Shown piece by piece: positions 12,994-53,660 of a DNA stretch of 64,000 bases. Under the pieces are notes generated by a model. The model was not told where the DNA came from. It was given only the letters and a program-made list of their open reading frames with translations, and ran no database searches. Location: contig JADZEY010000089.1 in assembly GCA_020850315.1 (NCBI GenBank), positions 1,022 to 65,021 of the forward strand. The letters run 5' to 3'. Position 1 is the stretch's first letter, and every line of letters starts with the position of its first letter. The DNA is from Armatimonadota bacterium (GTDB lineage: Bacteria; Bacteroidota; Ignavibacteria; OLB7). Both the position numbers and the translations under genes were made by a program.

Positions 12994-13273
12994 GATGTTG
13001 CTCTCTGGTTACGTTTGGGCTTGCTGATCTTTTTTTCTGATGCAACCATACGGAGCTTCTCTGCCGAAAGCACTACGGATAAACTACGGAGGCATCCGTA
13101 CCGCCACTGCGAACCGAAAAAAGGGGGCAGCATCTGATAGGCAGTAACTTCCAGCCTGATGCTTGGTTACTTTGCCGGGCGCGAATCTTTTTTGGCATCA
13201 TGCCGTTCGGGCACGGCATTTCTTCCGAATCGCCCCCCGCTATTTCCGCTCATTGTTCCCGTTCTGTTTCCCA

Positions 13274-16200
13274 ATGGATGCACTCACCAGTTTCCTACAT
13301 CACGGCACGCTTCCTTTTACCGGGCGTGGCGACCAGATTGAGCAGTTGCTTGCTTTTTGGCGTTCCACTCCCGATGTCTATGCCATGCAGATTGCGTTGG
13401 TGTTTGGCGAGGCTGGGGTGGGGAAAAGCCGATTAATAGATGAACTTGGCCCGCAAGTAATCCACAACGAGGGCCTGCTGATCCGGTTGAAACTGATCCC
13501 CGGGGCCACCATCTCCTTTGCCAGCCTGATTGCCCGCGCAATCCGCTGGAACGCCACCGCACGCGGGTTGCTGAAAGAACCGATTGTCGAATCACAAGGA
13601 GAGTCGGTGGCGGCATTGCACCGGCTTGCACGGCTGCGCCACACATTGCTGGTGATCGAGGATATCCACCTTCTCCCGCGTGAGTCAATTGAGGATTTGC
13701 GGCAACTGTTGGATGGACTATCGGGGGAGTTTATCAAGGTGATGCTGCTGGCGCGCCCCGTTGCTTTTGAATCGCGTGGATTGCTGGAGCCTTATCTCAC
13801 CCAAGAACTCCACTTGCGTGGCATGAACCTTCAGGAGTTGGCGGTGTTGTGGGAGCGGCTTTTCCTTTCCAAAGCGGATTCAGCGGTGATTGAGACGTTG
13901 GCGAACGTCACCTTGGGCAATCCATTGGCCGTTCGGTCGGCATTGCGTGGGGCGTTGCAGTCGCGGTTGCTGTTGTTGGATTCGGCAGGGGCGCGTTGGG
14001 CTCCGGCGGTGGCGATTGATCTGTTTAAGGAGTGCCTGCAACGCTACGTCGGGACGTTATCGGAGGGGATGGGGGCACACCTTGAACCGGATGAGCTTCG
14101 GGCTGCCGAGCAGCTGGCAACGTTAGGGGAAGTGTTTGCCCGCGAGGCCGCAGTGGCGTTGCTTCCGAACCTCCCAGAAATGCTGCCGATACTTCTGCAC
14201 AAAGGCATTTTGGTGGTTACGTCGGCTCCGTCGCCACTGCCACACACGGGTGATGGAACCGCTATCTACACCTTTACCCACACCTTGCTGCATCGCCATT
14301 TGGTGGCAACCGCTGTGGCCAACCGTGGCGTGAACGGTGCTGCGATTATTGCTGTTGTGGCCGGGCGGCTTCCCCTGTACTCCATTCTCCCATTGGAGTT
14401 ATTAACCACGCATGGCTCCGGTAACGCCCCGATTGCAGCGGTGCAAGGTGCCTTGAAGGTGTTGACCGATATGGTTATCCCCTTGACCGAAGGGACCGAC
14501 TGGCGATTTGCTACCCCAGTGTTGCAAGCCGCCAAAAGTTTGTTCGCTGCCTGCCAGCCGCACCTGAGCCAAGCCGAACAGCGGCAGCAGCAGTTGTTGC
14601 TGAAGGGGCTTGAGCTTTCGGTGCGCTATGCCGCTAGCGATTACGAGACGGTGCGGCAGGGGGTGGGTGAGTATCTGCAGCTTACGCAGCCGATGGAGTC
14701 GTTCGATGTTGTTCTGCGTCGGTACCATGCGTTATCGTTGCTGATGACGGTTGAGATGTACCAGACCAGTCAGTTCCCAGAAGAAACTTGGCGAGAACTT
14801 CAGGAGCTACAACAGCGATTTCCCGAAATTGAACTAACCGAGGAATACGTCCAGAATCTTACCAGCATTATCGGCGTGGTGATGTTGGTGCTGAACGACT
14901 ACACGTTGCTACGCCAGCTGGAACCCCGTTTGGAGGAGTTGCGGCAATCTGAGCAGACACCACCCGGGGTGCGCCGCCGGCTGCTGATCGGTATCGCCCC
15001 GTACCTTCTAACGCTGTACGACACCGAAGAACAACTTCAGCAGCGGCTGGCGATTGCTACAGAGTTGGAAGCGATTGCCGACGAACATTGGCTGGTGATT
15101 GTCAGCGGCCTTGTGCGGTTGTACGATGCCGCAGGGTTGTATCACCAGATGAACGCCGAGATTGAGCGGCGGCTTCCCCACGCCCGGCGGCTGGGCCATG
15201 TGAAGTCGGAACTCAGCTGGCGGTTTCGCAGCCTGATCTCCAAAGCTGCGTTTGGCACGCCCCCCCAGCAGATTATTGAACAGGTTGCCGAGATGTTTGC
15301 CGACCATTTCGGCGTGATGCCCTCCAGCGTCCGTTACCAGTTGGGGGATCGCCTCTGCTTTATTGCGTTGATGCTTGATCAGCCCGATCTGGCCAAACAG
15401 GTGTTTCACCAGTATAACCAGGGCGCGCCCGAACCGTTGGAGATGGGGGTGTTGCTGGGGCTGCACAACGGAACCCTTGATGAGCTTCCTGAACATCTTC
15501 CGGTGCGGGCGTTTCGGGAGTTCGAGGCGTTCGTGCAGGCTGCGTTGCTGCGCCAAACACTATCCGAACCGCAGATGCTGCGAGTTGTTCAGGAGGTGCT
15601 ATCCCCGGCGTTTTTGCACGCCGGCGAGCTGCTGATTGTTCATGCTGCATTCCAACTGTTGGAAGCCCGCATCATGCCACGATTGCAGGATCGTGCAATC
15701 ATCAGCCAGATTCAGGAGGCAATGCGGCAAACAATGGCGGGGGTGATGCGGTGGATGCACCAGCGGGGAATGTTTGCATTTATGAGGCCAATGGTGGCCC
15801 GCTATTCCCATCTACTAACCGAACCGACCGCCGCCGTATGGGAACAGCAAATCCAAACGTTGGAGGAACATTATCAATCGGGAGGGGGAGGCAAGCCGGA
15901 TCGCTGTGCCATCCAGATCACGATGGTGGGGGAGATTTCCGTGCAGGAACCGGGCCGCACTCCCCAGGCGGTTCGCGGGGCACGCAACCGCACCTTGCTT
16001 GCCTTGATGGTGGCCAACCAGATGCTCCGGCGGCCACTGACCAACGCAGAGTTCTGCCAGATTGCAACCGGGGTCGAGCAGGACGATGAGTACGCCCAAC
16101 GCCTAACCCGCATGGCGATATCGCGGCTTCGCGGACTGATTGGGCGCAACGCTATTCTCACCAAGTCGGGCCCCCCTCGGCTGAACCTCGATACTGTTCA

Positions 16201-16588
16201 GGTTGACCTGCTCCAGGCTCAACAGCAGATTGATAGCGCCCTGGCTGCCGCCAACGAAATGGCGTTGTTCCGGGCGTGGTCGGCGATGATTGCCGCGCTG
16301 AAGATCGTGCGGGGTGAAGTTCCGTTCCCCACACAGTACGAACGGTTTTTTGAAGCCGCCCGCGATGACTTCGAGCACCGCCTCCGCTCGGCACTCCTTC
16401 ATGTTGTGCGGCTTCTGCTGGAAGAAGAGGACTTTCACTATGCCGAAGAATTACTGCGCCATGCCATGCAGGCGATGCCAGGTGATCCAGAGGTCTCGGA
16501 CCTTCTGTCAAACGTGCTGCTGCAACAACACCAACGCGCCGAAGCCGAACGGTTGCGGCTAACTGCACTCCGATTGGCTGCTGACTGA
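13274..16588 (+). CDS. Large STAND/AAA_16 ATPase transcriptional regulator with a helical/TPR-like middle region and a C-terminal SARP output (OmpR-type winged helix plus BTAD)
   Basis: Walker A FGEAGVGKSRL and Walker B LLVIEDIHLL lie near the N-terminus. The C-terminal region ...RNRTLLALMVANQMLRRPLTNAEFCQIATG...ISRLRGLIG...RLNLDTVQVDLLQAQQQID... followed by ...ALFRAWSAMIAALKIVRGEVPFP... matches the SARP DNA-binding and BTAD pattern. The start was trimmed from 13163 to the ATG at 13274 (MDALTSFLHHGTLPFTGRGDQIEQL). Confidence 0.7.
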   Translation: MDALTSFLHHGTLPFTGRGDQIEQLLAFWRSTPDVYAMQIALVFGEAGVGKSRLIDELGPQVIHNEGLLIRLKLIPGATISFASLIARAIRWNATARGLLKEPIVESQGESVAALHRLARLRHTLLVIEDIHLLPRESIEDLRQLLDGLSGEFIKVMLLARPVAFESRGLLEPYLTQELHLRGMNLQELAVLWERLFLSKADSAVIETLANVTLGNPLAVRSALRGALQSRLLLLDSAGARWAPAVAIDLFKECLQRYVGTLSEGMGAHLEPDELRAAEQLATLGEVFAREAAVALLPNLPEMLPILLHKGILVVTSAPSPLPHTGDGTAIYTFTHTLLHRHLVATAVANRGVNGAAIIAVVAGRLPLYSILPLELLTTHGSGNAPIAAVQGALKVLTDMVIPLTEGTDWRFATPVLQAAKSLFAACQPHLSQAEQRQQQLLLKGLELSVRYAASDYETVRQGVGEYLQLTQPMESFDVVLRRYHALSLLMTVEMYQTSQFPEETWRELQELQQRFPEIELTEEYVQNLTSIIGVVMLVLNDYTLLRQLEPRLEELRQSEQTPPGVRRRLLIGIAPYLLTLYDTEEQLQQRLAIATELEAIADEHWLVIVSGLVRLYDAAGLYHQMNAEIERRLPHARRLGHVKSELSWRFRSLISKAAFGTPPQQIIEQVAEMFADHFGVMPSSVRYQLGDRLCFIALMLDQPDLAKQVFHQYNQGAPEPLEMGVLLGLHNGTLDELPEHLPVRAFREFEAFVQAALLRQTLSEPQMLRVVQEVLSPAFLHAGELLIVHAAFQLLEARIMPRLQDRAIISQIQEAMRQTMAGVMRWMHQRGMFAFMRPMVARYSHLLTEPTAAVWEQQIQTLEEHYQSGGGGKPDRCAIQITMVGEISVQEPGRTPQAVRGARNRTLLALMVANQMLRRPLTNAEFCQIATGVEQDDEYAQRLTRMAISRLRGLIGRNAILTKSGPPRLNLDTVQVDLLQAQQQIDSALAAANEMALFRAWSAMIAALKIVRGEVPFPTQYERFFEAARDDFEHRLRSALLHVVRLLLEEEDFHYAEELLRHAMQAMPGDPEVSDLLSNVLLQQHQRAEAERLRLTALRLAAD

Positions 16589-17465: not shown

Positions 17466-19199
17466 TCATTTTTTTTGTTTCCACACCCAAGCGGTTGCAA
17501 CGGCACGGGCGGTGCGGCCGGTGGCCCCAAGTTTCAGATAGATATTCGAGACGTGCCGCTCCACTGTTCGGATGCTTAAGAAAAGTTCCGTGGCAATCTC
17601 CTCGTTGCTTTTCCCGGCAGCAACCAGCATCAAAACTTCTGTTTCGCGGCGTGTAAAGTCATCCGAAGCAGAGCTATAGGGGGCAGTAGTGTGGCCGTGC
17701 GATGTGGAGATAAGGGCTGTTGCGCGTTCTGCGTCGCGTAGCGCGCCAAGCCGTTGCAGTGATTGTTCGGCAGCCCTGGCTTCTTCGCCAGCGCGTGTGT
17801 GATCGCCCAGTTGGTAAAGTAGGTGTGCAAGCTCAATCCGGGCGCATCCCCCTTCAAATGGCATGGGGGTGCGGTCATATAAATCAATGGCATCTTCAAG
17901 GTGAAGCAAGGCTTCGCGAAGGTTCCCCGTGGCTCCGGCAACTGCGCCATCGGCTGCATGAATTGCAGCGTGCAAGGGTAATGTGTTGAACCGGCTTGCA
18001 ATCTCCCGAAGTTCCGCCAGTGTGTGCTTGGCTTCCTGTCCGTTCCCCGCCGCAAGTTGCGCACGCAGCAAAAGCTCTAATCCCGAAACTCGTTCGATAC
18101 GGTCGGTAAGGGGAACGCGGCGAAGGTAGCGTTCAATCAGCCCGATTGCCCCGATAGGATTACTGTTGTGCAATTGTATAGCCGCGCGCCCCATCATCGA
18201 AAGTGGGTGGGATGAGGTTTCGGCAAACAATGCTTCAGCTTCGGCAAACCTCCCTTGCCTACGCCGAAGCTCTCCGATCCGAACGGTGCAGGCCGCCACT
18301 TGTCCTGGGCGGCATTCGCGCAGCATCGTGGCGGCATTCATCAGTTCTTGCTCCGCTTCTTCCCACCGCCCTTGTGTCATCAGGATGCTGGCATATTGTG
18401 TGCGGCATGACCCAAAGACAGAGGCCATGCGCCAGCGGCTACTGAATTTGGAAATACGGATGCACCATTGCGCGGCGCGGTCGTAGTCACGGATCCGTTC
18501 GCAGGCGGCAATCAGGTAGCAGCAGGTGCTGCCAATGGCGTTGATGTCGTCGGTTTCCCCTGCGATTGCGGCGGCGGTGGCTTCATCCAGCAATCGCATC
18601 CCCTCCGCTGGTTCGCCTTGGCTCACAAGTGCCAACCCGCGCAGTGCCAATGCCAGCATCTCGATGTCAGGTGCATCAAATGTGCGTCCGTAGCGCAATG
18701 CACTATCAGCATAGAGTATCGCTTCGGTGGGGTCTTTTTGAATCAGCAGCGCAACATGGGCTTGAAGCATGGTAAGAAATCCGGCTTCGCGGCATGGGCC
18801 GCATTTTTCAATGGCACGTAGCCCACGCGATAGCCACCCGATAGCAATCGCAAAGTCGCCACGGAACTCACCATAATCATTTGCTACCAGTCCGGCTACC
18901 CGCGCCATTCCTTGGTGATTATTTGCTTCATGGTGCAAAGCGTAGGCCCGTTCGCGGGCTGCGATGGTGGCGGTTGCATCGTTCAAAAAATAGGTGGCGG
19001 CTGCAATGGCTTCCAACGCTTCGGTGGTTTCTTGGTGGCCAAGTGCCTTTCCAAAACAATCGGCGGCAAGCTCCCACTCCCCCTGGGAAAAGGCTCGGTT
19101 CCCGGCGTTCAGATGGCTGATGTAATCGGCAGTGGGCATTGCTTGGCAGTACGAAAAGTAACCGGAAATAGATGAATCAGCCGAGGGAGGAGCGAACAT
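17466..19199 (-). CDS. LuxR-family transcriptional regulator with an N-terminal TPR/helical-repeat domain, comparable to the C-terminal half of MalT
   Basis: The C-terminal HTH, RRETEVLMLVAAGKSNEEIATELFLSIRTVERHVSNIYLKLG, is a LuxR/GerE helix-turn-helix. Long helical repeats precede it, and no P-loop is present. The start is ambiguous (ATG complement at 19197-19199 or 19137-19139); the 729-aa ORF extension lacks support. Confidence 0.65.
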   Translation of the reverse strand: MFAPPSADSSISGYFSYCQAMPTADYISHLNAGNRAFSQGEWELAADCFGKALGHQETTEALEAIAAATYFLNDATATIAARERAYALHHEANNHQGMARVAGLVANDYGEFRGDFAIAIGWLSRGLRAIEKCGPCREAGFLTMLQAHVALLIQKDPTEAILYADSALRYGRTFDAPDIEMLALALRGLALVSQGEPAEGMRLLDEATAAAIAGETDDINAIGSTCCYLIAACERIRDYDRAAQWCIRISKFSSRWRMASVFGSCRTQYASILMTQGRWEEAEQELMNAATMLRECRPGQVAACTVRIGELRRRQGRFAEAEALFAETSSHPLSMMGRAAIQLHNSNPIGAIGLIERYLRRVPLTDRIERVSGLELLLRAQLAAGNGQEAKHTLAELREIASRFNTLPLHAAIHAADGAVAGATGNLREALLHLEDAIDLYDRTPMPFEGGCARIELAHLLYQLGDHTRAGEEARAAEQSLQRLGALRDAERATALISTSHGHTTAPYSSASDDFTRRETEVLMLVAAGKSNEEIATELFLSIRTVERHVSNIYLKLGATGRTARAVATAWVWKQKK

Positions 19200-19458
19200 A
19201 AGAAAACAGCAGGGGAGGATGCTCCTGTAAAAATTGTACGATGCGGCGGTAGCCGTTTCGTGGCCACCGATAGCCAATAGCGTACCTTTGCACCGTAGAT
19301 ATACTCGGGTGCGTTGAGATTGCGAAATTCGATCCCTGTGGGCCTTGTAGATACTCGGCTTCGCGGGTAGCAATTTCGCAAACTGAAAGCACGTGAGTAT
19401 AAAAGCGGGGAAATCCCGCACGCCGTGCCTGCCCCCAACACCGATTCCCAATTTCCCG

Positions 19459-19962
19459 ATGAAAATCTTCGACGTTCTATTCTTGCTGGTTATCGCTGGG
19501 CTTGGCATCATCTCCCTGTTCGGTGGATGTACACAAAAAATCGGAAGGACGGCCGGGCCGCTGGCAACCGCACCAATCGGTGTGGAACGCGAGATTTGGG
19601 AGCGAATTAACCAGCACCGCCGAACGATGCAGATGCCGGCACTGGAGTACAGCATGGCAATGGCTGAGCAAGCGCAAACTCACTCGGAGCAGATGGGAAG
19701 CGGTGCGGTTCCGTTTGGGCACCAGGGGTTTGATGAACGCGCCGAGGCGATTGCCGAAACCGTGCAATTCAACGGGATTTCCGAAAACGTTGCCTGGTGT
19801 TCCGATACCAAAGCCATTGCCGACACCGCCGTAAAATTGTGGCTTGCCAGCCCAAGCCACCGCAAGAATATCGAAGGCGATTTCACCTTTACCGGGATTG
19901 GTGCCGCGCTGAACCAGCGTGGCGTTTGGTATTTCACACAGATTTTTGCGAAGCAGAGGTAG
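19459..19962 (+). CDS. CAP/SCP/PR-1 domain lipoprotein (YkwD-like)
   Basis: It begins [24 protein letters not shown], a lipoprotein signal with a lipobox Cys. The CAP-domain motifs [15 protein letters not shown] and VWYFTQIF are present. Confidence 0.6.
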
Positions 19963-21124: not shown

Positions 21125-21264
21125 GTCGGTTCTGATTGCTAAGTGGTTGTAATCAAATAGTGAAAAGGGAATTTTCCGCGATACCCGCGTTGCTGCCAAC
21201 GGATCACATTGCAGCAGCCGTTGCTTCCGTAAATCTAACGATGCTTACCGTTCACACAGCCTAC

Positions 21265-23679
21265 ATGAAAAATCTTCTTGCCAGCGTACTGTTCCTTGTA
21301 GTTCTATCCGTTGCGGCGCAATCGCAACCGGTGAAATCGTACCACACCACGCTGTTCGGCACCCTTGATCCCGACATCCAGAAGCAGGGAACGTATTCCG
21401 CGCTAACCGGCTACGCTGCCCCCGATGGCCGCGAGTACGCATTGCTGGGGGGCTTCACCGGAACCTACGTGATTGATGTTACCGATGCACCGCTGAAGCT
21501 GGTCAGCTTCATTCCCGGCCCAACAAGCCTGTGGCGCGAGATGAAAACATGGGGTTCCTACGGCTACGTTGTAAGCGAAGGGGGAAGCGGGTTGCAGATT
21601 ATTGACCTAACGCAGCTTCCGCTGAAAGCTGCATTGCTCCGTGCCGACACCTCAGCCTTCCGAACCGCCCACACAATTTCTGTGGAGGGGAATTATCTGT
21701 ACGTGAACGGAACCAACCCCGAAGCTGGCGCAAACCAGGGGACGCTGATTTTTGACCTTTCGGTGGACGCAACCCGCCCACGGTTAGTTGGGAAGTGGAC
21801 CGGCCGATACGTTCACGATTGCAGCGTCCGAAACGACACCCTGTACGCCGCAGCAATCCTTGATGGCCAGCTTGATATTGTCTATTTGGGAAAAGACCGG
21901 AAAAACCCGGTGCAAATAACCAATGTGAAATATCCCGGCGCAGGAACCCACAACGCCGAAACCACGATTGATGGCCGCTACATCCTGACAAGCGATGAGG
22001 TTGGCAGCACCCCAAAAACATTGAAAGTGTGGGACAGGACTGATATCCAAAACATCAAAAAAGCTGCTGACTGGACTCCTGTTCCCGGGGAGATTATCCA
22101 CAACGTTCATATCAAGGGGAACCATGCGTTTATTGCATGGTACAGCGCAGGAACCCGTGTTGTTGACATCAGCAACCCAACCAACCCGGTGCAGGTTGGT
22201 TACTACGACACCTACCCCGAAGCGGGTGAGTTTTTTGCGGGGAATTGGGGAACGTACCCCTACCTTCCCAGCGGTAAAATCTTAAGCAGCGACATGCAAA
22301 CCGGGCTGCACGTTTTCACGTTCGATGGCGCAACGCCTGGGCGGGTAAGCGGGCGGGTGATTGATGCCCTCACCAACAAGCCAATCCCCTTTGCACGTGT
22401 GGACCTTACCGATCTGAAAATCCGTGTCATCACCGACACGCTTGGGCGGTACACCTTTGCTGGCGCGGCGGATTCCCTGAATTGGTCAGCATCCATCCAA
22501 GATTACTTGCCCCGCTCCGGCAAATTTTACATTGACCCCAAGGGGGCGCAGCACGACATCTACTTATCCAAACTACCGCTGGCCGATCTCACCCTTCGGG
22601 TGGTTGACGACGGGACAAACCAGGCTATTCCCAACTTCGGTTGGCGGCTAACCGAGCGTTCGTTTGCCGAAGGCGTTGCCCCCAACGGATTCCAAACATT
22701 TTCGCTTCCGGCGGACAGCACTTATCAGATGTTTGTTGGGGCGTGGGGCTACCGCACTCAGTTGGTGCAGTTTGGCTCCAAAGGTGGCAACACGCAGGAA
22801 GTGCGGCTGAAGCGGGGATACTACGACAACGCAGAAGTTGATTTGGGATGGAAGATAGAGGACACCGCCGATGATGCAGTTTCTGGAAAGTGGGAGCGGG
22901 GTGTTCCAATCGGGACGGTGGCAGATATTCCACGGCGCGGGGAAACCAAAATCCAACCCGACAGCGACCGCACAGCCCAGCCCGGCGACCATGCTTTCGT
23001 TACCGGAATCACTGGAACGGAAGGGAGCAACATCGGTGCCGCCGACGTTGACAACGGGATCACACGGCTAACCTCGCCAGCATTTGATCTATCCGGTTGG
23101 TACGACCCTCACATCACCGTGAACCTTTGGTACTCGCGTGGTGGAAACGTTCGGGGGATTGATGACACCATGCACGTTCTGCTATCGAACGACAACGGCA
23201 AAACCTGGGCCGTGATTGACAGAATCACCGACTCGGCGGATGCCTGGAAACGCTACGAGTATCAAGTGCAGAAATTTCTGGAACCTACATCGCAGATGCT
23301 ATTTCGGATAGAAGCAAGCGATCTGGGGGAGCCATCGTTAGTGGAAGCAGCAATGGATGAATTTGAGATAGAAGAGCGAGGCGACGCAACTGGGGTTGAT
23401 GAAAAAATGACCGCAAGTGGAATCGCAACCACGCTGCAACCGAACCCATTGGTGGCTGGGCAGGGGAGGGTGATACTGAATCTTGCCAACTCAATCAATC
23501 AGCTTCGCATTGAAGTATTCAATATCACAGGGGAGCGGGTGCTACAACTGCATGATGGCGCAGCCGCATCGGGTATCTTGAGCCTTCCGATTGATGCCAC
23601 ATCGGTAGCAGCAGGAAATTACCAATTGACCATCACTGCCGACGGGAACGTGTGGAGTAGGGAAGTGGTGGTACGGTAG
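21265..23679 (+). CDS. Secreted LVIVD-repeat beta-propeller protein with a carboxypeptidase-regulatory-like domain and a C-terminal Por/T9SS sorting domain
   Basis: It has a signal peptide (MKNLLASVLFLVVLSVAAQSQ) and a CarbopepD_reg-like segment (GRVSGRVIDALTNKPIPFARVDL). The last ~80 aa (LQPNPLVAGQ...LRIEVFNITGERV...AAGNYQLTITADG...) match the T9SS C-terminal-domain pattern. Confidence 0.7.
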   Translation: MKNLLASVLFLVVLSVAAQSQPVKSYHTTLFGTLDPDIQKQGTYSALTGYAAPDGREYALLGGFTGTYVIDVTDAPLKLVSFIPGPTSLWREMKTWGSYGYVVSEGGSGLQIIDLTQLPLKAALLRADTSAFRTAHTISVEGNYLYVNGTNPEAGANQGTLIFDLSVDATRPRLVGKWTGRYVHDCSVRNDTLYAAAILDGQLDIVYLGKDRKNPVQITNVKYPGAGTHNAETTIDGRYILTSDEVGSTPKTLKVWDRTDIQNIKKAADWTPVPGEIIHNVHIKGNHAFIAWYSAGTRVVDISNPTNPVQVGYYDTYPEAGEFFAGNWGTYPYLPSGKILSSDMQTGLHVFTFDGATPGRVSGRVIDALTNKPIPFARVDLTDLKIRVITDTLGRYTFAGAADSLNWSASIQDYLPRSGKFYIDPKGAQHDIYLSKLPLADLTLRVVDDGTNQAIPNFGWRLTERSFAEGVAPNGFQTFSLPADSTYQMFVGAWGYRTQLVQFGSKGGNTQEVRLKRGYYDNAEVDLGWKIEDTADDAVSGKWERGVPIGTVADIPRRGETKIQPDSDRTAQPGDHAFVTGITGTEGSNIGAADVDNGITRLTSPAFDLSGWYDPHITVNLWYSRGGNVRGIDDTMHVLLSNDNGKTWAVIDRITDSADAWKRYEYQVQKFLEPTSQMLFRIEASDLGEPSLVEAAMDEFEIEERGDATGVDEKMTASGIATTLQPNPLVAGQGRVILNLANSINQLRIEVFNITGERVLQLHDGAAASGILSLPIDATSVAAGNYQLTITADGNVWSREVVVR

Positions 23680-45680: not shown

Positions 45681-47675
45681 ATGACCAAAGCCCTACGCTA
45701 TTACCTTGCCGCAGCCTTGCTTGTTGCTGCTGGCGTGTTGGTGGCAATCAACACAAAATCTTCGCCGAAACCGGCGGCGCGCACCTACACTGGTGTGCAA
45801 TCTTGCCTAACCGCCAACTGCCATGCCGGACAGTATGGCAACGGAGAAAGCTACAAAGGTGCCGCAGCGTTTATGGAAACGATGCACACCAAAATCCACC
45901 AGCGACCAAACCCACAGACCGTAATCATTGACCGCTGGTTCCGCGAAAAACGTGTGTTGAAAATCCACGACCAGGGAATCCCAACGCCTGGGCAGGATAC
46001 GCTGCTGATTGAGCTAAGCAAAGGGGAGCGTGAGGATGAATACTACATCCAGCTCCGCTTCTCGGGTGGGGGCGATTCCTTGCCAAAAATGAAGGTGGGC
46101 TACACCTACGGCGGCAACGGATGGCTGCAACGGTTTTTGGTGGAGATCAACGGAGCCTACTATGTTCCCCCGTTCCAGTATGTGCTTCCTGAATACCGTA
46201 ACCAGTCCGATACCGGTTATTGGGTTGGATTGGATATGCAAAAATGGTACGTGGCAAACGATCCAAATACTGGCAGCGCACGATTCCTCCGCTGGGAAAA
46301 GAATGAGTTCCTGAAACTCTCGTGGGATCACGAGTGTGCTGCCTGCCACGTAAACGGTTTTGGCTTGGTTGTGGATCCCAAACCAGGAACAACCGACACC
46401 GCAAATTATGCAACATGGGTTGGCGTTGCCGAAGGCGACTCCGCTCTGGCCGACCAGAACATTATGATCGGTTGCGAAAGCTGCCACGGCCCCGGCTCGG
46501 AACACGTTGCAAGCCCACGGAAGGATAACATCTTTGCCTTCTCGGTACTCCCCAAAACAAAGGAGGCAACCGACCGCAAATTGGATCTTTGCAACTACTG
46601 CCACACCCGTGGCCCCAGCAAGCCAGGCCGCGTCCATCGCTATCCGTTTGATGAAACCAACAATGAGCCGTTCATCCCAGGTGGCGAACGTCCGCTCAGC
46701 GATTTCTTTTTCGCACGCCCAACGGTCTGGGACGACGGAAAAACTTCCTACGCCCACCACCAGCATGGCGATGATTATGCGCGCTCAACGCAGTATAAAA
46801 GTCACCTGTTCATTGACGGCTGCTCCGATTGCCACTTGTCCCACTACAACAAGCCAGGGCTACCGTTCCAGTTGAAAGATGATTACTACTCATTGGAAGA
46901 TGGCGTTGGCTGCATGAGCTGCCACGGTATTCCAAAGGCGCAGGGAGGAAAGAGTGAGTTCCCAGCCGATAATTTGGGACGTGATACAGTGTTGGAAGGG
47001 AAGACCCTGAACGCACATACGTTCCACTCGCAAGGGGTAAGCCAGTGTGTGAACTGCCACTTCACGGCAACGGCAACCATCTCCTTCGACGGCAAGTTCA
47101 ACTTCACCGATCACAGCTTTAAAGTGGTCTCGCCAGAGGAGACTATTTGGTACTACCGCCGCGGAGCAACCATCGGGGTGATTAACTCCTGCGCTGCGGG
47201 CTGCCACCGCAACGGGCGCGGCGAACGGAACCGCAAGCCAGGCGACCCGCTGGCCCCAGACTTTGGAATCGTAGATCTGAACCCAGTCTTCTATAAGGAG
47301 AAAACGGATAGCCTGTTGGCTGATACGCTGTTCAAGCGTTGGAAGCAGTGGGGATGGTCAACACGGCATAATCAAACTGGAGTTGAGACATCCAACATCG
47401 CCGTCACCGGCATGGCACCAAACCCAATGGTATCCGGCAACACGCTGAACATCCAGTACAATGTGAAGTCCCGCTCGAACGTACGGGTGCAGATTGTGGA
47501 TATGCTTGGCAGGAACATCCGGTACGTTGCCAACGGCATGACCGAGCCAGGGAATCACTCAGTAGTGTGGGATGCCAACGATAACTTTGGCAAGCGGGTG
47601 GCAAGCGGAGCCTACATGGTTCGCATCACAACACCGGCTGGGACCACCAGCGAAAAAGTGATTGTGCTGCCGTAG
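45681..47675 (+). CDS. Secreted multihaem c-type cytochrome with a C-terminal Por/T9SS sorting domain
   Basis: It has a signal peptide and six canonical CXXCH motifs (CAACH, CESCH, CNYCH, CSDCH, CMSCH, CVNCH). There are also variant CX3CH (CAAGCH) and CX4CH (CLTANCH) motifs. The last ~85 aa (MAPNPMVSGNTLNIQYNVKSRSNVRVQIVDMLGRNI...SGAYMVRITTPAGTTSEKVIVLP) match the T9SS C-terminal-domain consensus. Confidence 0.75.
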   Translation: MTKALRYYLAAALLVAAGVLVAINTKSSPKPAARTYTGVQSCLTANCHAGQYGNGESYKGAAAFMETMHTKIHQRPNPQTVIIDRWFREKRVLKIHDQGIPTPGQDTLLIELSKGEREDEYYIQLRFSGGGDSLPKMKVGYTYGGNGWLQRFLVEINGAYYVPPFQYVLPEYRNQSDTGYWVGLDMQKWYVANDPNTGSARFLRWEKNEFLKLSWDHECAACHVNGFGLVVDPKPGTTDTANYATWVGVAEGDSALADQNIMIGCESCHGPGSEHVASPRKDNIFAFSVLPKTKEATDRKLDLCNYCHTRGPSKPGRVHRYPFDETNNEPFIPGGERPLSDFFFARPTVWDDGKTSYAHHQHGDDYARSTQYKSHLFIDGCSDCHLSHYNKPGLPFQLKDDYYSLEDGVGCMSCHGIPKAQGGKSEFPADNLGRDTVLEGKTLNAHTFHSQGVSQCVNCHFTATATISFDGKFNFTDHSFKVVSPEETIWYYRRGATIGVINSCAAGCHRNGRGERNRKPGDPLAPDFGIVDLNPVFYKEKTDSLLADTLFKRWKQWGWSTRHNQTGVETSNIAVTGMAPNPMVSGNTLNIQYNVKSRSNVRVQIVDMLGRNIRYVANGMTEPGNHSVVWDANDNFGKRVASGAYMVRITTPAGTTSEKVIVLP

Positions 47676-47713: not shown

Positions 47714-47763
47714 GGAGGCACGGATTCTCTGGGGGAGCAATCTCCCCGCGACTTCGTGCCTCC
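47714..47763 (+). terminator. Compound stem-loop 3' of the cytochrome gene
   Basis: The outer arms GGAGGCACG...CGTGCCTCC enclose an inner GGGGGAG/CTCCCCG hairpin. A GGGGGTTTTCCC tract lies 20 nt downstream. There is no clean U-tract. Confidence 0.35.
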
Positions 47764-47902: not shown

Positions 47903-48592
47903 GTGTCTTCCACGCTTGCCAAAGCATTCCAACAAATGGCTGCTGTTGCGGCAAAGGATATCCGAAGCGAGCTTCGTACACGATTCGCGCTGAACTCCCT
48001 TGCAATGGTTGCTGTGGTAACGGTGGTGGTGTTGGTGTATGCCGCCCGCGAGGAGGTGAAGGTCCCCGTGGGGATTGCTTCCGGGATGCTGTGGGTGAGT
48101 ATGTTTTTTACCGCTGTGACTGGGCTTGGCCGCACGTTTGTTAGCGAGGAAGAGCGTGGCACGGTGCTGCTGCTGCGGCTAACAACCTCGGCAATCCCTG
48201 TGTACTTCGGCAAGCTGCTGGTGAATATGCTGTTTGCTGTTGGGGTGAATGCCGTGGTGGGGGTGCTGTACTTGTTCTTCTCCACCAACGTGCAGTTGGG
48301 TTCGCCGTTCGCGCTGCTGGTGGTGCTGCTTCTGTGCAGCTTCGGGTTTGCCGCATCGCTCACAATCGCTTCGGCCATTATCGCCCGCTCCTCCTCCAAA
48401 AGTGCTCTGTTCCCGGTGCTCTGTTTCCCAATTCTGCTGCCGCTGATGGTGCTGGGGATTGACCTTCTTGGCCGTTCGTTTGCTGGCGCAGCGTTGGGCG
48501 TGATGCTTGAACCATTGCTGCTGCTGCTGCTGTACTCAGTGCTGGTGATCGTCGTCAGCTACATCTTGTTCGACTTCCTCTGGAAAGAATAA
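47903..48592 (+). CDS. ccmB: Haem exporter protein B (System I cytochrome c maturation)
   Basis: It has six predicted TM helices and the CcmB-family motif FVSEEERGTVLLLRL. It begins with GTG at 47903; an alternative ATG lies at 47936. No ccmA ATPase gene is adjacent. Confidence 0.72.
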   Translation: MSSTLAKAFQQMAAVAAKDIRSELRTRFALNSLAMVAVVTVVVLVYAAREEVKVPVGIASGMLWVSMFFTAVTGLGRTFVSEEERGTVLLLRLTTSAIPVYFGKLLVNMLFAVGVNAVVGVLYLFFSTNVQLGSPFALLVVLLLCSFGFAASLTIASAIIARSSSKSALFPVLCFPILLPLMVLGIDLLGRSFAGAALGVMLEPLLLLLLYSVLVIVVSYILFDFLWKE

Positions 48593-48595
48593 TCC

Positions 48596-49696
48596 ATGAA
48601 AGCACTTCTCATTTTCGGCGGGTTTGCCTTGGGGATGTTCCTCGGCTTCTATCCCGGCGGCGTTACCAAGCCGCGCCCCGTGTGGTGGCGCACCGTTGCA
48701 ATGGTTGCCCTTGTGGTGTTGGTTTTTGTTGGGTTCGGCGTGCCAACGGGGGGAACCTTCGGCTCGGCAAAAATGATCACCATGACCAAGGACACGCCGC
48801 CACTGCTTCCGGTGATGGGGAAGGTGGTGCAGGCGCCAACCAACGGCTTGGCCGTGCTCCAAGATTCCGATGGTGATTTAGATACGTTCCGGTTGGCCGG
48901 CACGGGAATGAACCCCTCTGACATCCAGCGTGGCGACCAAGTGATCCTTGATGCCCGCTTCATTCGCGCCGAAAAACTGTTCGAAGCCGAGCGGGTTGCT
49001 TCGGTGAACCCCATCGTCACCGCGCCGCTGATCCCCGGGCTTGAGGAACGCGCCCGCAACCTCTATTTCCATGTCCCCTCGGCTTGGGTGGCGCAAATTG
49101 CGTGGTTTGTGGCGTTCGGTTTTGCGATAGCCTACCTGCGCAAACGAAAAATTGAGCATGACATCATTGCAAGCTCAGCTGCCGCGTTGGGGGGGATTTT
49201 TTGCCTGTTAGCAACCATCACCGGATCGGTGTGGGCGCGTTTTAACTGGGGGACATTTTGGACGTGGGACGATCCCCGGCTTATCTCCATCACGATTGTC
49301 CTGATTGTTTTTGGGGCCTACTTTGCGCTCCGTTCTGCAATCGAGAACCAAGACCAGCGGGCAAGGATTTCCGCAGTCTATATGATTATCCTGGTGCTTC
49401 CGGTGACGTTCTTCATGTTCGTCTATCCCCGGATTGCTGGCGGATTGCACCCCGGTTCAAAAGGGGATGTGAACTCCGGACCGGTGCTGTCGGGCCAAGC
49501 CGATTCAATGAACATTGTGATGCAGGTCATCTACGGCTTAGCAATCTTTGCGTTTATTACTCTCTACTTCTGGATGCTGAACGTTGCTGCCCGAACACGG
49601 CTGTTGGGGATGCGCCGGGAACGCCGCGCCGCCGAAATGGATAACCGAGAGAAACAACCAACATCGGCAATGGGGCCGACGGTGGTTCGTCTGTGA
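48596..49696 (+). CDS. ccmC: Haem exporter protein C with a ~125-aa N-terminal extension or insertion
   Basis: The WWD tryptophan-rich motif (NWGTFWTWDDPRL) and the LYFHVPSAW block align with CcmC. The protein is 366 aa against ~245 aa for canonical CcmC. The extra region has two TM segments and a ~70-aa soluble segment. Confidence 0.78.
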   Translation: MKALLIFGGFALGMFLGFYPGGVTKPRPVWWRTVAMVALVVLVFVGFGVPTGGTFGSAKMITMTKDTPPLLPVMGKVVQAPTNGLAVLQDSDGDLDTFRLAGTGMNPSDIQRGDQVILDARFIRAEKLFEAERVASVNPIVTAPLIPGLEERARNLYFHVPSAWVAQIAWFVAFGFAIAYLRKRKIEHDIIASSAAALGGIFCLLATITGSVWARFNWGTFWTWDDPRLISITIVLIVFGAYFALRSAIENQDQRARISAVYMIILVLPVTFFMFVYPRIAGGLHPGSKGDVNSGPVLSGQADSMNIVMQVIYGLAIFAFITLYFWMLNVAARTRLLGMRRERRAAEMDNREKQPTSAMGPTVVRL

Positions 49697-49746
49697 GCCA
49701 CGGCTTGCTGAAGCGATCAACTTCATACACTGGCCAACCAAGAACC

Positions 49747-49881
49747 ATGCAATTCCTATCCGAACACTCTATCTACGTTGTTCTTATCATCGCGCTATTG
49801 ATCCTGAGCGGGTTGCTGATCTACCTAAACCGGATTGATGCTCGGCTGCGAAAACTTGAACAAGAGGAACCACAACCATGA
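49747..49881 (+). CDS. CcmD-like small single-TM protein
   Basis: It is 44 aa (MQFLSEHSIYVVLIIALLILSGLLIYLNRIDARLRKLEQEEPQP). Its size and position between ccmC and ccmE are typical of CcmD. Its stop overlaps the ccmE start. Confidence 0.45.
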   Translation: MQFLSEHSIYVVLIIALLILSGLLIYLNRIDARLRKLEQEEPQP

Positions 49882-50261
49882 AACCAAAGTATATCATCGG
49901 GGCCGTTATCGCCCTTGCGGTGCTGGTCACAGCGTTTATCGTTGTTGAAAGCCGTGGCGTGGAGTACATGAACTTCCCACGCGCCGCCGAATCAGGAAGC
50001 AAAGTGCAGGTGGCCGGCGTTTGGGTGAAAGAGAAAGGACAGGAGTACAACGCCACCAACAACCTGTTCACGTTCACCATGCAGGATCGCGACGGCAACA
50101 CCATGCCAGTAAAGTTTGAAGGTGCCAAGCCAAATAACTTCGAAATTGCCACCGAAGTGGTCTGCACCGGAAGGGTGGAGAATGGAGAGTTTGTGGCAAC
50201 GAACATCCTAACAAAATGCCCCAGCAAGTACGAAGCAACCTCAAAAGACTTGCAGCTGTAG
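49878..50261 (+). CDS. ccmE: Cytochrome c maturation haem chaperone CcmE, Cys variant (CXXXY instead of HXXXY)
   Basis: It has a TM anchor and an OB-fold that aligns with E. coli CcmE. VQVAGVWV corresponds to VRLGGMVM, and VKFEGAKPNNF to VSYEGILPDLF. The haem-binding position reads ILTKCPSKYE where the canonical sequence is LAKHDENY. Confidence 0.68.
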   Translation: MKPKYIIGAVIALAVLVTAFIVVESRGVEYMNFPRAAESGSKVQVAGVWVKEKGQEYNATNNLFTFTMQDRDGNTMPVKFEGAKPNNFEIATEVVCTGRVENGEFVATNILTKCPSKYEATSKDLQL

Positions 50262-50316: not shown

Positions 50317-50673
50317 ATGCAACGCAGAATCCTTTTCATCTCCTTCTTTCTGTTGCTCGCAGCCGGCGTTGTGATCTACGGAGTGATGAACGTTGATGTG
50401 CCGCAAATGACCTTTGCCGAAGCGGTGAAGGTCAACGATGAATCCAAAAAAGTGATTCTGGTGGGGAAAGGAATCAACCGCCCCGCCACCGAGGATGGCG
50501 CAGTGGTCTTTTACGTGACCGATATGGACGGCACCGAAGTGAAAGTGAGCTACGATGGCGAAGCCTTCGACCACGAACGGCTGAACCACGCCTTGCAAAA
50601 GGGAGAGGTGGTGCACGTTGCCGGCCACGCCCACTCGGATCATTTCCACGGCAAAGAACTCTTCTTTAAGTGA
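50317..50673 (+). CDS. Second CcmE-like OB-fold protein with a His-rich C-terminus
   Basis: It has a TM anchor. VKVSYDGEAFDHERL...KGEVVHVAGHAHSDHFHGKELFFK aligns with the CcmE core (VDVSYEGILPDLF...GQGVVVQGEL). The C-terminus is His-rich and lacks the conserved Tyr. Confidence 0.5.
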   Translation: MQRRILFISFFLLLAAGVVIYGVMNVDVPQMTFAEAVKVNDESKKVILVGKGINRPATEDGAVVFYVTDMDGTEVKVSYDGEAFDHERLNHALQKGEVVHVAGHAHSDHFHGKELFFK

Positions 50674-50697: not shown

Positions 50698-53121
50698 ATG
50701 AATGATACAGCAGTTTTTAACGGAACACTTGGCACGATTGCCATCTGCTTTGCGCTTGCCACCGCCGCAATCGCAATGGTTGCCTATGGGCTGATGTGGA
50801 AAAACGGAGAGGAGCGATTTGGGAAGATTGGCCGCGTTGGCTTCCATGCTTCGGTGCTCAGCTTCATGTTCGCATCGGCCACGCTGATGTTCTTGATTTT
50901 CACCCACCAGTTCCAGTACACCTACGTCTGGCAGCATTCCTCCACCTTCCTTTCTCGCCCGTTGCTGATGGCCTCCTTCTATGCCGGGCAGGAGGGGAGC
51001 TTCATGCTCTGGACGTTGCTGACCTGCATCGTTGCAGTGTTTGTGATGGGATATGCCCAGCGGGTGAACTACGAAGCCCCAGTGATGACCATCTACACAC
51101 TGGTGCTGGTCTGTTTGCTGATGATTCTGGTGGTGCAATCTCCCTTCGAGACGCTGCAAGCATCGTTCCCGGGCGAGGTGCCGGCAGGCTACATTCCCCC
51201 CACCGGAAAAGGGATGAACCCGCAGCTGGAAAATCTGTGGATCACCATCCATCCCCCAATTCTTTTCATGGGCTTTGCCGCAATGTCCGTTCCGTTTGTG
51301 TTTGCCATTGCTGGGCTGTTCCGCAAGGATTACCAGCGTTGGATCACCGTCTCGCTCCCCTGGACGCTGTTTGCCTCCATGGTGCTGGGATTCGGAATTA
51401 TGCTTGGCGGTTGGTGGGCCTACGAGACGCTTGGTTGGGGCGGTTTTTGGGCGTGGGACCCGGTGGAAAATTCATCACTGATTCCGTGGCTGGTCTGTGT
51501 GGCACTGGTCCATACCATGCTGGTGCAGAAACGAACCGGAACCATGAACGGCCCTAATGGCAAGCCAATGGCAGGGGGGCTTGTTCGCACCAATTTTGTG
51601 CTGGCAATTTTTGCCTATGCACTTATTCTTTACTCCACGTTCCTTACCCGCTCCGGCGTTCTTGGCGATACCTCAGTCCACAGTTTTGTTGCGCCGGGAA
51701 TGTTCGTGTACGCAGTGCTGTTGGGGATTATTTTTCTATTTCTTGGGATTGGCATTGTTGCCCTCTCAATTCGTTGGCGGCAGCTAACGAACATCGCTGG
51801 CGAGATGAAACTGATGTCGCGCGAGAACGGTTTGGCACTGGGTTCGGCGGTGTTGGTGGGGTGTTCCATCGTTACTTTAATCGGGACAAGTTGGCCCATT
51901 ATTCGCCCCATTTTTGGTTTAGCAAAAAAACCGTTCGAAACCGGCGATTTTAATATGCTGATGCTCCCATTCGGTTTTGTGATTGTGTTCTTGAATGCCT
52001 TAACCATGGGGCTGAAGTGGAAAAACACCTCCAAAGAATCGTTTGTAAAAGCGTTATCATTATCAACAATTATTGCCGCTGTTGGAACGTTCGGGCTGAT
52101 ACTGTTAGGAATCCATGACCCAATCTACATTGCGCTCGGCTTTGGGGCAATGCTGGCATTAACCATCAACATTGAAATGGGGTGGAAAATCCTTCGCGGA
52201 AATAAAAGCTTTGTTGGCGCGTATGTTTCCCATGCTGGCGTTGCGTTGATGATGCTTGGCATTGTCTTCACCGCCCGCTACTCCGTCACCCAGCACGTCC
52301 GTTTGCCGGAAGGGGAGACCAAAGAAGCGTTCGGCTACAAGATGACCTACAAGGGGCAAGAACAGATTGAGTTAGACAAAACCGATCGCGAAAAATACGC
52401 CCATAAAATTGAGATGGTGAAGGATGGAAGCAGCTACGAAGTACAACCAATTATTTTCTGGAGCGATTTTAATAAACGGCAATCTGCATTTCTTGAGCCG
52501 GGGATATTGTACTATCCAACAAAAGACATCTACGTCTCCCCAAAAGCCATTGAAGACGATGGCGGAAATCCAACAATCGCCATGCACAAAGGGGACAAAA
52601 TTCCCCTCCCGTTTGATTCCAGCATCGCCCTCCGTTTTGTGAAATTTGAAATGGCCAACGCAGCCCAAGATGGGAAGCAATCGGCTGTTGTTGAAGTAAC
52701 CACAAAGGATAGCACATTTTCCCTGATCGCTTCACGCGTTTTGGAAGGCGGTCGCTATCTGCCGGTATTGATCCCCTCCACCGACATCTCCATCGGGTTC
52801 GGCGATCTGCGTGCCGATCGGGAAAACTTGGCAAACTCCGAAGCTGTTTTTGTCTTCAGTTCGCCATCGCATCCGCCGCCACCATCCAAGCGGGTGATTA
52901 CGGTTGATGTTTCCGTAAAACCGTTTATTTCGTTCGTTTGGGCGGGAGTGATTATCATGGTGGGGGGATTTTTCTTCTCAATTATCCGCCGCTGGAAAGA
53001 TGTGTTCCGGGGGATAAGCCCTTCAGTGCCTTCACCCCTTCAGCAGCCGCAAACCTTGTTGGCCAGTGGTGAACAATTAAGCAGCGCACGCCCGAAAGAA
53101 ATTAATGTGGGAGAAGTTTAG
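50698..53121 (+). CDS. ccmF: Cytochrome c-type biogenesis protein CcmF (haem lyase subunit)
   Basis: It has the WWD motif (WGGFWAWDPVENSSLIPWL), many TM helices and the conserved CcmF N-terminus (MNDTAVFNGTLG...). The protein is 807 aa. Confidence 0.85.
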   Translation: MNDTAVFNGTLGTIAICFALATAAIAMVAYGLMWKNGEERFGKIGRVGFHASVLSFMFASATLMFLIFTHQFQYTYVWQHSSTFLSRPLLMASFYAGQEGSFMLWTLLTCIVAVFVMGYAQRVNYEAPVMTIYTLVLVCLLMILVVQSPFETLQASFPGEVPAGYIPPTGKGMNPQLENLWITIHPPILFMGFAAMSVPFVFAIAGLFRKDYQRWITVSLPWTLFASMVLGFGIMLGGWWAYETLGWGGFWAWDPVENSSLIPWLVCVALVHTMLVQKRTGTMNGPNGKPMAGGLVRTNFVLAIFAYALILYSTFLTRSGVLGDTSVHSFVAPGMFVYAVLLGIIFLFLGIGIVALSIRWRQLTNIAGEMKLMSRENGLALGSAVLVGCSIVTLIGTSWPIIRPIFGLAKKPFETGDFNMLMLPFGFVIVFLNALTMGLKWKNTSKESFVKALSLSTIIAAVGTFGLILLGIHDPIYIALGFGAMLALTINIEMGWKILRGNKSFVGAYVSHAGVALMMLGIVFTARYSVTQHVRLPEGETKEAFGYKMTYKGQEQIELDKTDREKYAHKIEMVKDGSSYEVQPIIFWSDFNKRQSAFLEPGILYYPTKDIYVSPKAIEDDGGNPTIAMHKGDKIPLPFDSSIALRFVKFEMANAAQDGKQSAVVEVTTKDSTFSLIASRVLEGGRYLPVLIPSTDISIGFGDLRADRENLANSEAVFVFSSPSHPPPPSKRVITVDVSVKPFISFVWAGVIIMVGGFFFSIIRRWKDVFRGISPSVPSPLQQPQTLLASGEQLSSARPKEINVGEV

Positions 53122-53123
53122 AG

Positions 53124-53660
53124 ATGCCGAAAACAAAGCAACCAGCGATTCCTGAAGCTGTGCAATCGAAAGAATTGCACGAAGAGGATCGCATCCTTTC
53201 CAACGAGCAAAAACAGCAGGCGATTGCAACATTCACCAAATTCCTGACCCAGGAACATTACCGCTCAACCGAGGAGCGATTTAAGGTGTTGGAGATGGTG
53301 CTGCACCGCGTTGGGCACGGGCATTTTAATGCCGATGAGTTGTACGCAAATATGGTGATGAGTAAAATTCGCATCAGCCGCGCAACCGTCTATTCAACGC
53401 TGGAGTTGCTGGAAAAAGCTGGGATTATTATCAAGCATAATTTCAGAACTGATAGAAGCTATTATGAGGTCGGATTTGATGAACCACATCACGATCACTT
53501 GATCTGTGTGAAATGCGGGCATATCTCGGAATTTGTGAACCCGCAACTTCTTAGCATTCGCAAGCAAGTTGCCGACATGGCAGGGTTGAAGGTTGTGGAT
53601 CACTCCTTCCAGATATTTGCCGAGTGTCCCGAGCCAGGAAAATGCCCGCATAATCAATAA
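53124..53660 (+). CDS. fur: Fur-family metal or haem-responsive transcriptional regulator
   Basis: It has the Fur winged-helix region (RATVYSTLELLEKAGII), the HHDHLIC metal-site motif and CxxC...C in the C-terminal domain. It starts 2 bp after the ccmF stop. Confidence 0.78.
   Translation: MPKTKQPAIPEAVQSKELHEEDRILSNEQKQQAIATFTKFLTQEHYRSTEERFKVLEMVLHRVGHGHFNADELYANMVMSKIRISRATVYSTLELLEKAGIIIKHNFRTDRSYYEVGFDEPHHDHLICVKCGHISEFVNPQLLSIRKQVADMAGLKVVDHSFQIFAECPEPGKCPHNQ

Follow-up and report, generated by a model that had tools for sequence, protein, structure and literature searches.

A gene at positions 45681-47675 of the window (the whole 64-kb stretch analysed here, from contig JADZEY010000089.1) encodes a 664-residue c-type cytochrome in which eight haem-binding motifs are combined with a type IX secretion system (T9SS) C-terminal sorting domain (CTD). 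Sequence similarity, fold similarity and the order of its haems place the protein, with its eight haems, in the OcwA-like branch of the NrfA/MccA superfamily, and its C-terminus is a bona fide type A CTD. We consider it reasonably probable that the cytochrome is exported by the T9SS and acts outside the cell as an OcwA-like terminal oxidoreductase. The finding pairs a known function, that of an extracellular multihaem cytochrome, with an unreported route of export and anchoring, the T9SS. No link between the T9SS and multihaem or c-type cytochromes was found in the searchable literature, whose coverage leaves out most subscription journals.

The cytochrome and its sorting domain

The open reading frame (ORF) of the cytochrome runs on the forward strand from an ATG at 45681 to a stop codon at 47673-47675, and its AlphaFold2 model has a mean predicted local distance difference test score (pLDDT) of 77.4. 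Its parts, together with a second tagged gene of the window, are as follows.

45681..47675, + strand: octahaem c-type cytochrome gene with T9SS type A CTD, 664 residues (ORF check, family searches, homologues, AlphaFold2 model)
45681..45752, + strand: N-terminal signal or anchor segment of Sec type, residues 1-24 (MTKALR and then a hydrophobic helix; modelled as helical over 2-24)
45804..45824, + strand: haem motif 1, CLTANCH (CX4CH), aligned with CKTCH of OcwA and equivalent to OcwA haem 1
45948..46280, + strand: beta-sheet domain without haem motif, residues ~90-200
46335..46349, + strand: haem motif 2, CAACH, by alignment equivalent to the five-coordinate active-site haem 2 of OcwA
46473..46487, + strand: haem motif 3, CESCH, inside the invariant GCESCHGPG (motif scan, alignments)
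46590..46604, + strand: haem motif 4, CNYCH (motif scan, alignments)
46755..46763, + strand: invariant H359-H360-Q361, aligned with the His-His 281/282 pocket of OcwA on the distal face of haem 2
46821..46835, + strand: haem motif 5, CSDCH (motif scan, alignments)
46911..46925, + strand: haem motif 6, CMSCH (motif scan, alignments)
47046..47060, + strand: haem motif 7, CVNCH, equivalent to OcwA haem 8
47190..47207, + strand: haem motif 8, CAAGCH (CX3CH, invariant), equivalent to OcwA haem 9
47355..47399, + strand: low-confidence linker between haem domain and CTD, residues 559-573 (pLDDT <50 for 559-571)
47415..47666, + strand: T9SS type A CTD, residues 579-662 (TIGR04183, PF18962, fold matches)
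21136-23679, + strand: second CTD cargo, a non-cytochrome protein of 847 residues (choice-of-anchor B/LVIVD repeat region, CarboxypepD_reg, CTD)

The original prediction had counted six canonical CXXCH motifs plus a CX3CH and a CX4CH variant in this protein, and the ORF and a motif scan agree with that count: a CX4CH motif starts at residue 42, CXXCH motifs at 219, 265, 304, 381, 411 and 456, and a CX3CH motif at 504. All 16 cysteines of the protein fall within these eight motifs. A rough estimate from typical Cys and His frequencies gives about 0.002 CXXCH per 664 residues by chance, and six in a single protein of this length are far beyond that expectation; elsewhere in the window a stop-to-stop frame contains at most one. 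Every Cys and His of the eight motifs is invariant across 35 aligned homologues sharing 35-89% identity. The first site switches between CXXCH and CX4CH among homologues, as would be expected if it is truly a haem site and tolerates variation in spacing. Eight further histidines are invariant in the same alignment (H69, H275, H359, H360, H388, H446, H449 and H478), and these appear numerous enough to serve as distal ligands, the assignments being taken from the alignment; an invariant or nearly invariant methionine was not found among the 35 homologues.

A profile search of the PDB with the cytochrome gave as its best match OcwA (6i5b, E 2.6e-15); the S-layer undecahaem cytochrome of Carboxydothermus ferrireducens ranked next (6qvm, E 2.3e-8), and the match to NrfA was weak (E 5e-5). 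The body of the protein, which the original prediction proposed to compare with multihaem cytochrome families, belongs to the OcwA/NrfA superfamily and is not Mtr-like. In a residue alignment, haems 1-6 of the cytochrome pair with haems 1-6 of OcwA, and its haems 7 and 8 with haems 8 and 9 of OcwA; OcwA haem 7 is left without a counterpart and falls in a segment absent from the cytochrome. The His-His pocket characteristic of OcwA is present at the level of the alignment, as the invariant H359-H360-Q361 (retained as HHQQ in the Ignavibacteria clade) matches HH281/282 of OcwA, and in the OcwA crystal structure these two histidines are positioned above haem 2, which is five-coordinate, on its distal face (PMC6703420). 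The cytochrome thus probably has at least one open-coordination, substrate-accessible haem. Bacteroidetes relatives of OcwA and of OmhA, the C. ferrireducens protein, have been noted before as 'octahemes of unassigned function' (PMC7829351).

Several closer assignments were considered and rejected. The protein is not an orthologue of the nonahaem OcwA, having eight motifs only, no equivalent of OcwA haem 7 and no methionine for the His-Met ligation of the last haem. Membership of NrfA or MccA was dismissed on motif, haem count and fold, a pattern scan of the cytochrome finding neither CXXCK nor CX15CH. MtrC/OmcA membership fails on haem number (eight, not ten), on a differing fold, on the lack of a lipobox and on a PF22113 score that lies only at the threshold (30.6 versus 30).

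The T9SS sorting domain claimed for the C-terminus was upheld by the model searches proposed as its test. Residues 579-662 score 39.4 bits with TIGR04183 (cutoff 23) and 27.4 bits with PF18962 (Por_Secre_tail; cutoff 27), and the last 85 residues are modelled as a beta-sandwich whose fold matches include the CTDs solved for PorU, PorZ and mirolase. The domain closes the protein at its extreme C-terminus, and its Ig-like beta-sandwich fold is that of solved CTDs. By analogy with the known T9SS mechanism, the linker of residues 559-573 that precedes it is a candidate site for PorU-type cleavage. The CTD of the 847-residue protein at 21136-23679 is homologous to that of the cytochrome (28% identity, E 1e-8), which means that this genome puts the same tag on ordinary cargo; across the window and the loci fetched from relatives, 48 non-cytochrome ORFs carry such a domain.

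Relatives and their gene neighbourhoods

A protein search recovered ~95 clusters of full-length relatives (32-89% identity, ~575-710 residues) which, where named, come from metagenome-assembled genomes (MAGs) of Chlorobi/Chlorobiota, Kapabacteria and Ignavibacteria. Scanning species-representative genomes yielded 78 loci, which belong to Kapaibacteria, Ignavibacteria, Kryptonia and various MAGs labelled Bacteroidota; Acidobacteria and a small number of other phyla gave weaker matches. The best of the loci, from Chlorobiota MAG-306 (JAEUSP01), shows full synteny and 94% identity, so that the window stems from a bacterium of Kapabacteria/Chlorobiota type. An orthologue of 89% identity lies on contig JADJXR010000001.1 of GCA_016710285.1. 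With a profile of the Ignavibacteria clade, >250 further clusters were added, KSB1 and Kryptobacter members among them, and an exhaustive HMMER search of 1.84 billion representatives with the haem domain alone returned 412 clusters at E ≤ 1e-3, of which 19 reached E ≤ 1e-30.

When local hidden Markov models of the haem domain and of the CTD were run over the window and the fetched loci, the CTD was found at the extreme C-terminus of 74 of 83 homologues, the nine without it being six fragments and three complete Acidobacteria genes. The T9SS is described as confined to the Fibrobacteres-Chlorobi-Bacteroidetes (FCB) superphylum; the tag thus follows the lineages having the secretion system. The search for the same cytochrome plus CTD fusion, also proposed at the outset, met with ample success: the fusion recurs in hundreds of homologues and defines the family in Kapabacteria, Ignavibacteria, Kryptonia and KSB1. 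A further 14 CTD-tagged cytochromes of other types occur in the fetched loci, and at least three cytochrome architectures show the same pairing. Several genomes of the Kapabacteria clade have tandem pairs of the CTD-cytochrome 5' of the ccm genes (loci L004/L019, 10001-14077; L017; L022; L060), and some have up to two further paralogues elsewhere, placed among other CTD cargo, with four copies in genome DATLHO01. Annotation pipelines already label proteins of this family 'T9SS type A sorting domain-containing'.

Longer variants of ~890-985 residues were also observed, in which an EB_dh (PF09459) haem-binding domain is added to the OcwA-like domain (P0437, P0460, P0462, P0466, P0471-P0473, P0476 and P0484). 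Nearly all have a recorded Por_Secre_tail CTD, and one source labels some of them nitrite reductase or ethylbenzene dehydrogenase-related.

The surroundings of the gene differ between clades. In contrast to the ccm-linked gene of Kapabacteria, that of the Ignavibacteria clade lies inside cytochrome-rich clusters. Its neighbours there are cytochrome b561 and 17-19-haem cytochromes, a sigma-54 response regulator, a 12-haem cytochrome and porin-like proteins of ~440 residues, and two other multihaem families with CTDs share these clusters. Locus L040 (1-16300) contains genes for a porin-like 440-residue protein, for tetrahaem, 18-haem, b561 and 19-haem cytochromes, for a sigma-54 response regulator, for the OcwA-like CTD protein and another CTD protein with 8 haems, and for a histidine kinase. 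L034 (500-15800) has the OcwA-like CTD protein together with a 9-haem protein that combines an MtrC-like domain and a CTD; a porin-like 436-residue protein, a 12-haem cytochrome and a 7-haem cytochrome are also present. The module of b561 with 17-19-haem cytochromes was met again in six loci of the Ignavibacteria clade and, in more distant form, in two of Planctomycetota. The 9-haem CTD protein has matches in eleven loci at the BLAST thresholds used. These clusters look like complete candidate pathways for extracellular electron transfer (EET), in which electrons are probably supplied by the neighbouring cytochrome b561, the 17-19-haem cytochromes and the porin-like protein with its 12-haem cytochrome. 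Besides L040 and L034, clusters of this make-up, with two or three kinds of CTD-tagged cytochrome, were seen in L038, L051, L052, L056 and L062.

Candidates for both a porin and a multihaem partner stand beside homologues in Ignavibacteria L034, L040 and L062 and in Acidobacteria L075, the porin-like proteins being judged by sequence features only. In L075 (5892-10517), a porin-like 624-residue protein (with a signal peptide and a C-terminal Phe) and a ~290-residue decahaem cytochrome accompany a CTD-less homologue. The decahaem cytochrome is directly 5' of the CTD-less OcwA-like homologue in L067 (3194-5870) and L071 (8941-11689) as well as in L075; in L075, the one of the three whose upstream region was examined, the gene for the porin-like 624-residue protein stands first. 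This Acidobacteria layout is like that of an Mtr-type module, with the OcwA-like protein at the position of MtrC. The Ignavibacteria and Acidobacteria contexts are the strongest indirect evidence that the family forms the extracellular end of an electron conduit.

Several observations weigh against export and extracellular electron transfer in the genome at hand. No gene for T9SS machinery (SprA/Sov, PorV, PorU, PorK-N) was found in the 64-kb window, and neither was a porin, a periplasmic multihaem cytochrome or a quinol dehydrogenase; nearly all large ORFs were annotated in this search, which turned up only housekeeping genes. For T9SS machinery elsewhere in the genome, the second CTD protein of the window, the 48 non-cytochrome CTD ORFs and the published placement of the system in the FCB superphylum speak indirectly. 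The gene studied here is the sole cytochrome c of the window, and no porin-cytochrome module adjoins it there. Among the best 120 of 234 relatives of the Ignavibacteria porin-like protein, where only about one quarter of the proteins carry any source name, no Kapabacteria name appeared. The PF18962 score of the CTD is barely above threshold, and Pfam FlgD_ig scores higher on the same region, at 32.7 bits. As for the Sec signal that had been predicted, the protein begins with a charged n-region, which a hydrophobic stretch of 17 residues follows, and n-h-c N-termini occur in all homologues, with canonical A-x-A|Q sites in distant members (e.g. ANA|Q), but the cytochrome itself shows no textbook AXA cleavage site, and without a clear signal-peptidase site the segment may be an uncleaved membrane anchor. 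The AlphaFold2 model is without haem, and the distal ligands are assigned by alignment. Finally, OcwA reduces nitrite and hydroxylamine in vitro (PMC6703420), so homology to it does not single out mineral respiration.

The FlgD_ig score, the unclear cleavage site and the lack of visible T9SS genes in the window would also fit a cytochrome that stays periplasmic or on the inner membrane, its C-terminal Ig-like sandwich being a structural or interaction domain of the FlgD-Ig type; one source indeed names several relatives 'FlgD immunoglobulin-like domain containing protein'. We regard this as very improbable. The TIGR04183 score is well above cutoff, the domain is always at the extreme C-terminus and is lacking from complete Acidobacteria homologues, domains of the same type end non-cytochrome proteins in the window and in the loci of relatives, and its fold matches include the solved T9SS CTDs already named.

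A second alternative keeps export by the T9SS and changes the role, making the protein a secreted or surface enzyme for soluble small molecules (nitrite, hydroxylamine, sulfite, tetrathionate or peroxide) with no conduit to minerals or electrodes. Its haem domain does belong to the NrfA/MccA/OcwA superfamily, whose multihaem enzymes are catalytic, the invariant His-His-Gln falls in the alignment on a distal pocket that covers an open-coordination haem, one source calls some relatives 'nitrite reductase c552', and the in vitro activities of OcwA and the window without an electron conduit agree with such a role. An extracellular reductase would, however, still require an electron donor outside the cell, the CXXCK or CX15CH active-site motif is missing from the cytochrome, and homologues in Ignavibacteria and Acidobacteria lie in porin-cytochrome-type clusters typical of EET. 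We judge this alternative unlikely, and retain the T9SS-exported, OcwA-like terminal oxidoreductase as our preferred interpretation.

The ccm locus and the rest of the window

Downstream of the cytochrome gene lies a set of genes for haem attachment, preceded by a structured gap.

47714..47763, + strand: strong, nested, GC-rich hairpin in the gap between cytochrome and ccmB (125-nt stretch, -56.7 kcal/mol, z = -2.9)
47903..48592, + strand: ccmB (PF03379, E 9e-11)
48596..49696, + strand: ccmC, long, 366 residues (PF01578; TIGR01191 on residues 153-334)
49747..49881, + strand: probable ccmD_alt, ~44 residues (by synteny only; window ORF 49693-49881)
49878..50261, + strand: ccmE of the CxxxY type, CPSKY instead of HxxxY (PF03100, E 9e-17)
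50317..50673, + strand: second CcmE-like protein, divergent and membrane-anchored, ending in a His-rich tail, HAHSDHFHGK (NF009727, weak full-length match, E 2.7e-4)
50698..53121, + strand: ccmF, 807 residues (PF01578, PF16327)
53124..53660, + strand: Fur-family regulator, directly 3' of ccmF, a conserved position (PF01475, E 5e-30)

With ccmB, ccmC, ccmE and ccmF present and CPSKY in CcmE, the locus encodes a System I (Ccm) of the CxxxY-CcmE variant. The CxxxY form of CcmE is known from archaea and sulfate reducers. A 'dedicated, atypical' Ccm locus had been claimed immediately downstream of the cytochrome. Adjacent and atypical it is, with its CxxxY CcmE, its second CcmE-like gene and, in the Pfam annotation, no ccmA, ccmG or ccmH nearby; the label 'dedicated' was rejected, as nothing ties the locus to this cytochrome alone, and it may be the genome's sole System I, serving every cytochrome c. 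PF20077 is recorded on the gene equivalent to the probable ccmD_alt, also of 44 residues, in the near-identical loci L001 and L002. CcmC has an N-terminal extension of ~150 residues, and CcmF continues for ~190 residues beyond its CcmF_C domain.

The pair of ccmE and ccmE-like genes is kept throughout the Kapabacteria clade, where the genes form the string GATase, GT4, cytochrome (in one or two tandem copies), ccmB, ccmC, ccmD_alt, ccmE, ccmE-like, ccmF, Fur, a 213-residue protein and FtsK. The cytochrome-ccm string is conserved across the clade down to ~40% identity. The hairpin at 47714-47763 has no T-tract; it could serve as a terminator or attenuator, or have a stabilising role. A scan for sigma-70 promoters and intrinsic terminators around the cytochrome gene found nothing above shuffled background.

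The Fur-family regulator conserved in this string bears on a third alternative, that of a surface cytochrome for electron uptake (from Fe(II), reduced humics or a cathode) or of an assimilatory ferric reductase under Fur control. Multihaem chains are reversible in principle, and the Kapabacteria-clade gene is not embedded in a respiratory cytochrome cluster, both of which leave room for such a role. Yet the nearest characterised relatives are terminal reductases, no iron-uptake genes adjoin the cytochrome in the window annotation, and the Fur gene 3' of ccmF may merely couple haem handling to iron status. Uptake or assimilation seems to us a slim prospect.

Elsewhere in the window, the ORF of TilS (5683-8241, - strand, 852 residues) has, after the TilS domains, ~370 residues of Gln/Pro-rich tandem repeats (QAKPQGNQPQ...QQRPTQQSGST), a candidate extension, and it is this repeat region that causes the strong AT skew at 6001-8000. 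A STAND-type ATPase (AAA_16) of 1141 residues with C-terminal TPR repeats is encoded at 13163-16588 (+ strand), adjoined on the opposite strand by the gene for a LuxR-family regulator of 729 residues (17466-19655).

Proposed export route and comparison with known systems

We propose that the cytochrome would reach the cell surface in four steps. The apoprotein would be exported by Sec through its N-terminal signal segment, and the variant System I encoded downstream would load the eight haems in the periplasm. The T9SS would then recognise the type A C-terminal beta-sandwich and move the folded holoprotein over the outer membrane, where a PorU-type sortase would cut the CTD off at the flexible linker and leave the protein attached to lipopolysaccharide or released. 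Outside the cell, as homology to OcwA and the gene context in relatives suggest, the haem chain would act as a terminal oxidoreductase, with respiratory electrons passing along haems that are mostly bis-His until they reach at least one haem of open coordination beneath the conserved His-His-Gln pocket. Possible acceptors, insoluble or soluble, are Fe(III) or Mn(IV) oxides, humics and electrodes, and possibly nitrite or hydroxylamine. The route of electron supply in this Kapabacteria-type genome is not visible within the window.

A broader proposal, which we advance tentatively as having somewhat less than an even chance of being right, is that the T9SS is a general route of delivery and tethering for haem-loaded multihaem cytochromes in Kapabacteria, Ignavibacteria, Kryptonia and KSB1, used by at least three unrelated architectures. 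It would build an EET layer, possibly anchored to lipopolysaccharide, that does the job of the T2SS-exported (type II secretion system) lipoprotein cytochromes of Shewanella and Geobacter.

Surface multihaem cytochromes drive microbial metal reduction, electricity generation and interspecies electron exchange, and most work on their export concerns Proteobacteria, which rely for it on the T2SS and lipoprotein anchoring. If the T9SS carries folded eight-haem proteins, its range of cargo widens to cofactor-loaded redox proteins. Export by this system would offer an explanation of how the surface of Ignavibacteria and Kapabacteria could be wired, and the CTD would become a simple sequence marker for extracellular cytochromes in FCB genomes. 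EET in an FCB-group bacterium, drawn as an implication in the original prediction, is not in itself new, having already been inferred for Ignavibacteria from genomes (porin-cytochrome clusters, large multihaem cytochromes) and from physiology (PMC7399161); the new element is the T9SS route. A high abundance of Ignavibacteria on bioanodes and Chlorobi/Ignavibacteria MAGs from anammox granules have been reported (PMC7399161, PMC5460018). Secretion, sorting and porins are not mentioned in the multi-omics paper on Melioribacter (PMC5492636), nor is the group discussed here in a survey of outer-membrane multihaem cytochromes (PMC11475568).

Among characterised proteins the closest is OcwA (TherJR_2595 of Thermincola potens JR, PDB 6I5B), a nonahaem cell-surface terminal reductase. 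The cytochrome described here differs from it in having eight haems, the first and the eighth of which bind via CX4CH and CX3CH, in lacking a conserved Met equivalent to the one that, with a His, ligates the last haem of OcwA, and in its setting, a diderm host with a T9SS CTD instead of a Gram-positive cell wall. An extra beta-sheet domain equivalent to residues ~90-200 is found in both OcwA and MccA. OmhA of Carboxydothermus ferrireducens (PDB 6QVM) has eleven haems, is attached to a Gram-positive S-layer and has no CTD.

MtrC and OmcA of Shewanella and the OmcB-type cytochromes of Geobacter porin-cytochrome complexes share the role proposed here, that of an outer multihaem cytochrome as the last step of EET. 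As in the Mtr and OmcB systems, homologues in relatives adjoin porin-like proteins and periplasmic multihaem cytochromes. The fold, however, is of the NrfA/OcwA type and not the staggered cross of MtrC, and the cytochrome has no lipoprotein signal. Whereas MtrC/OmcA/OmcB-type cytochromes are exported by the T2SS and held by a lipid anchor, the predicted export here is by the T9SS with a CTD. With classical type A cargo of the T9SS (gingipains, mirolase, cellulases, xylanases and adhesins), the cytochrome has in common an N-terminal Sec-type segment, a TIGR04183 beta-sandwich at the very C-terminus and a flexible linker before it. It differs in its passenger, a redox protein with eight covalent cofactors that need to be loaded in the periplasm before export, a kind of cargo that was not found in any of the searchable papers.

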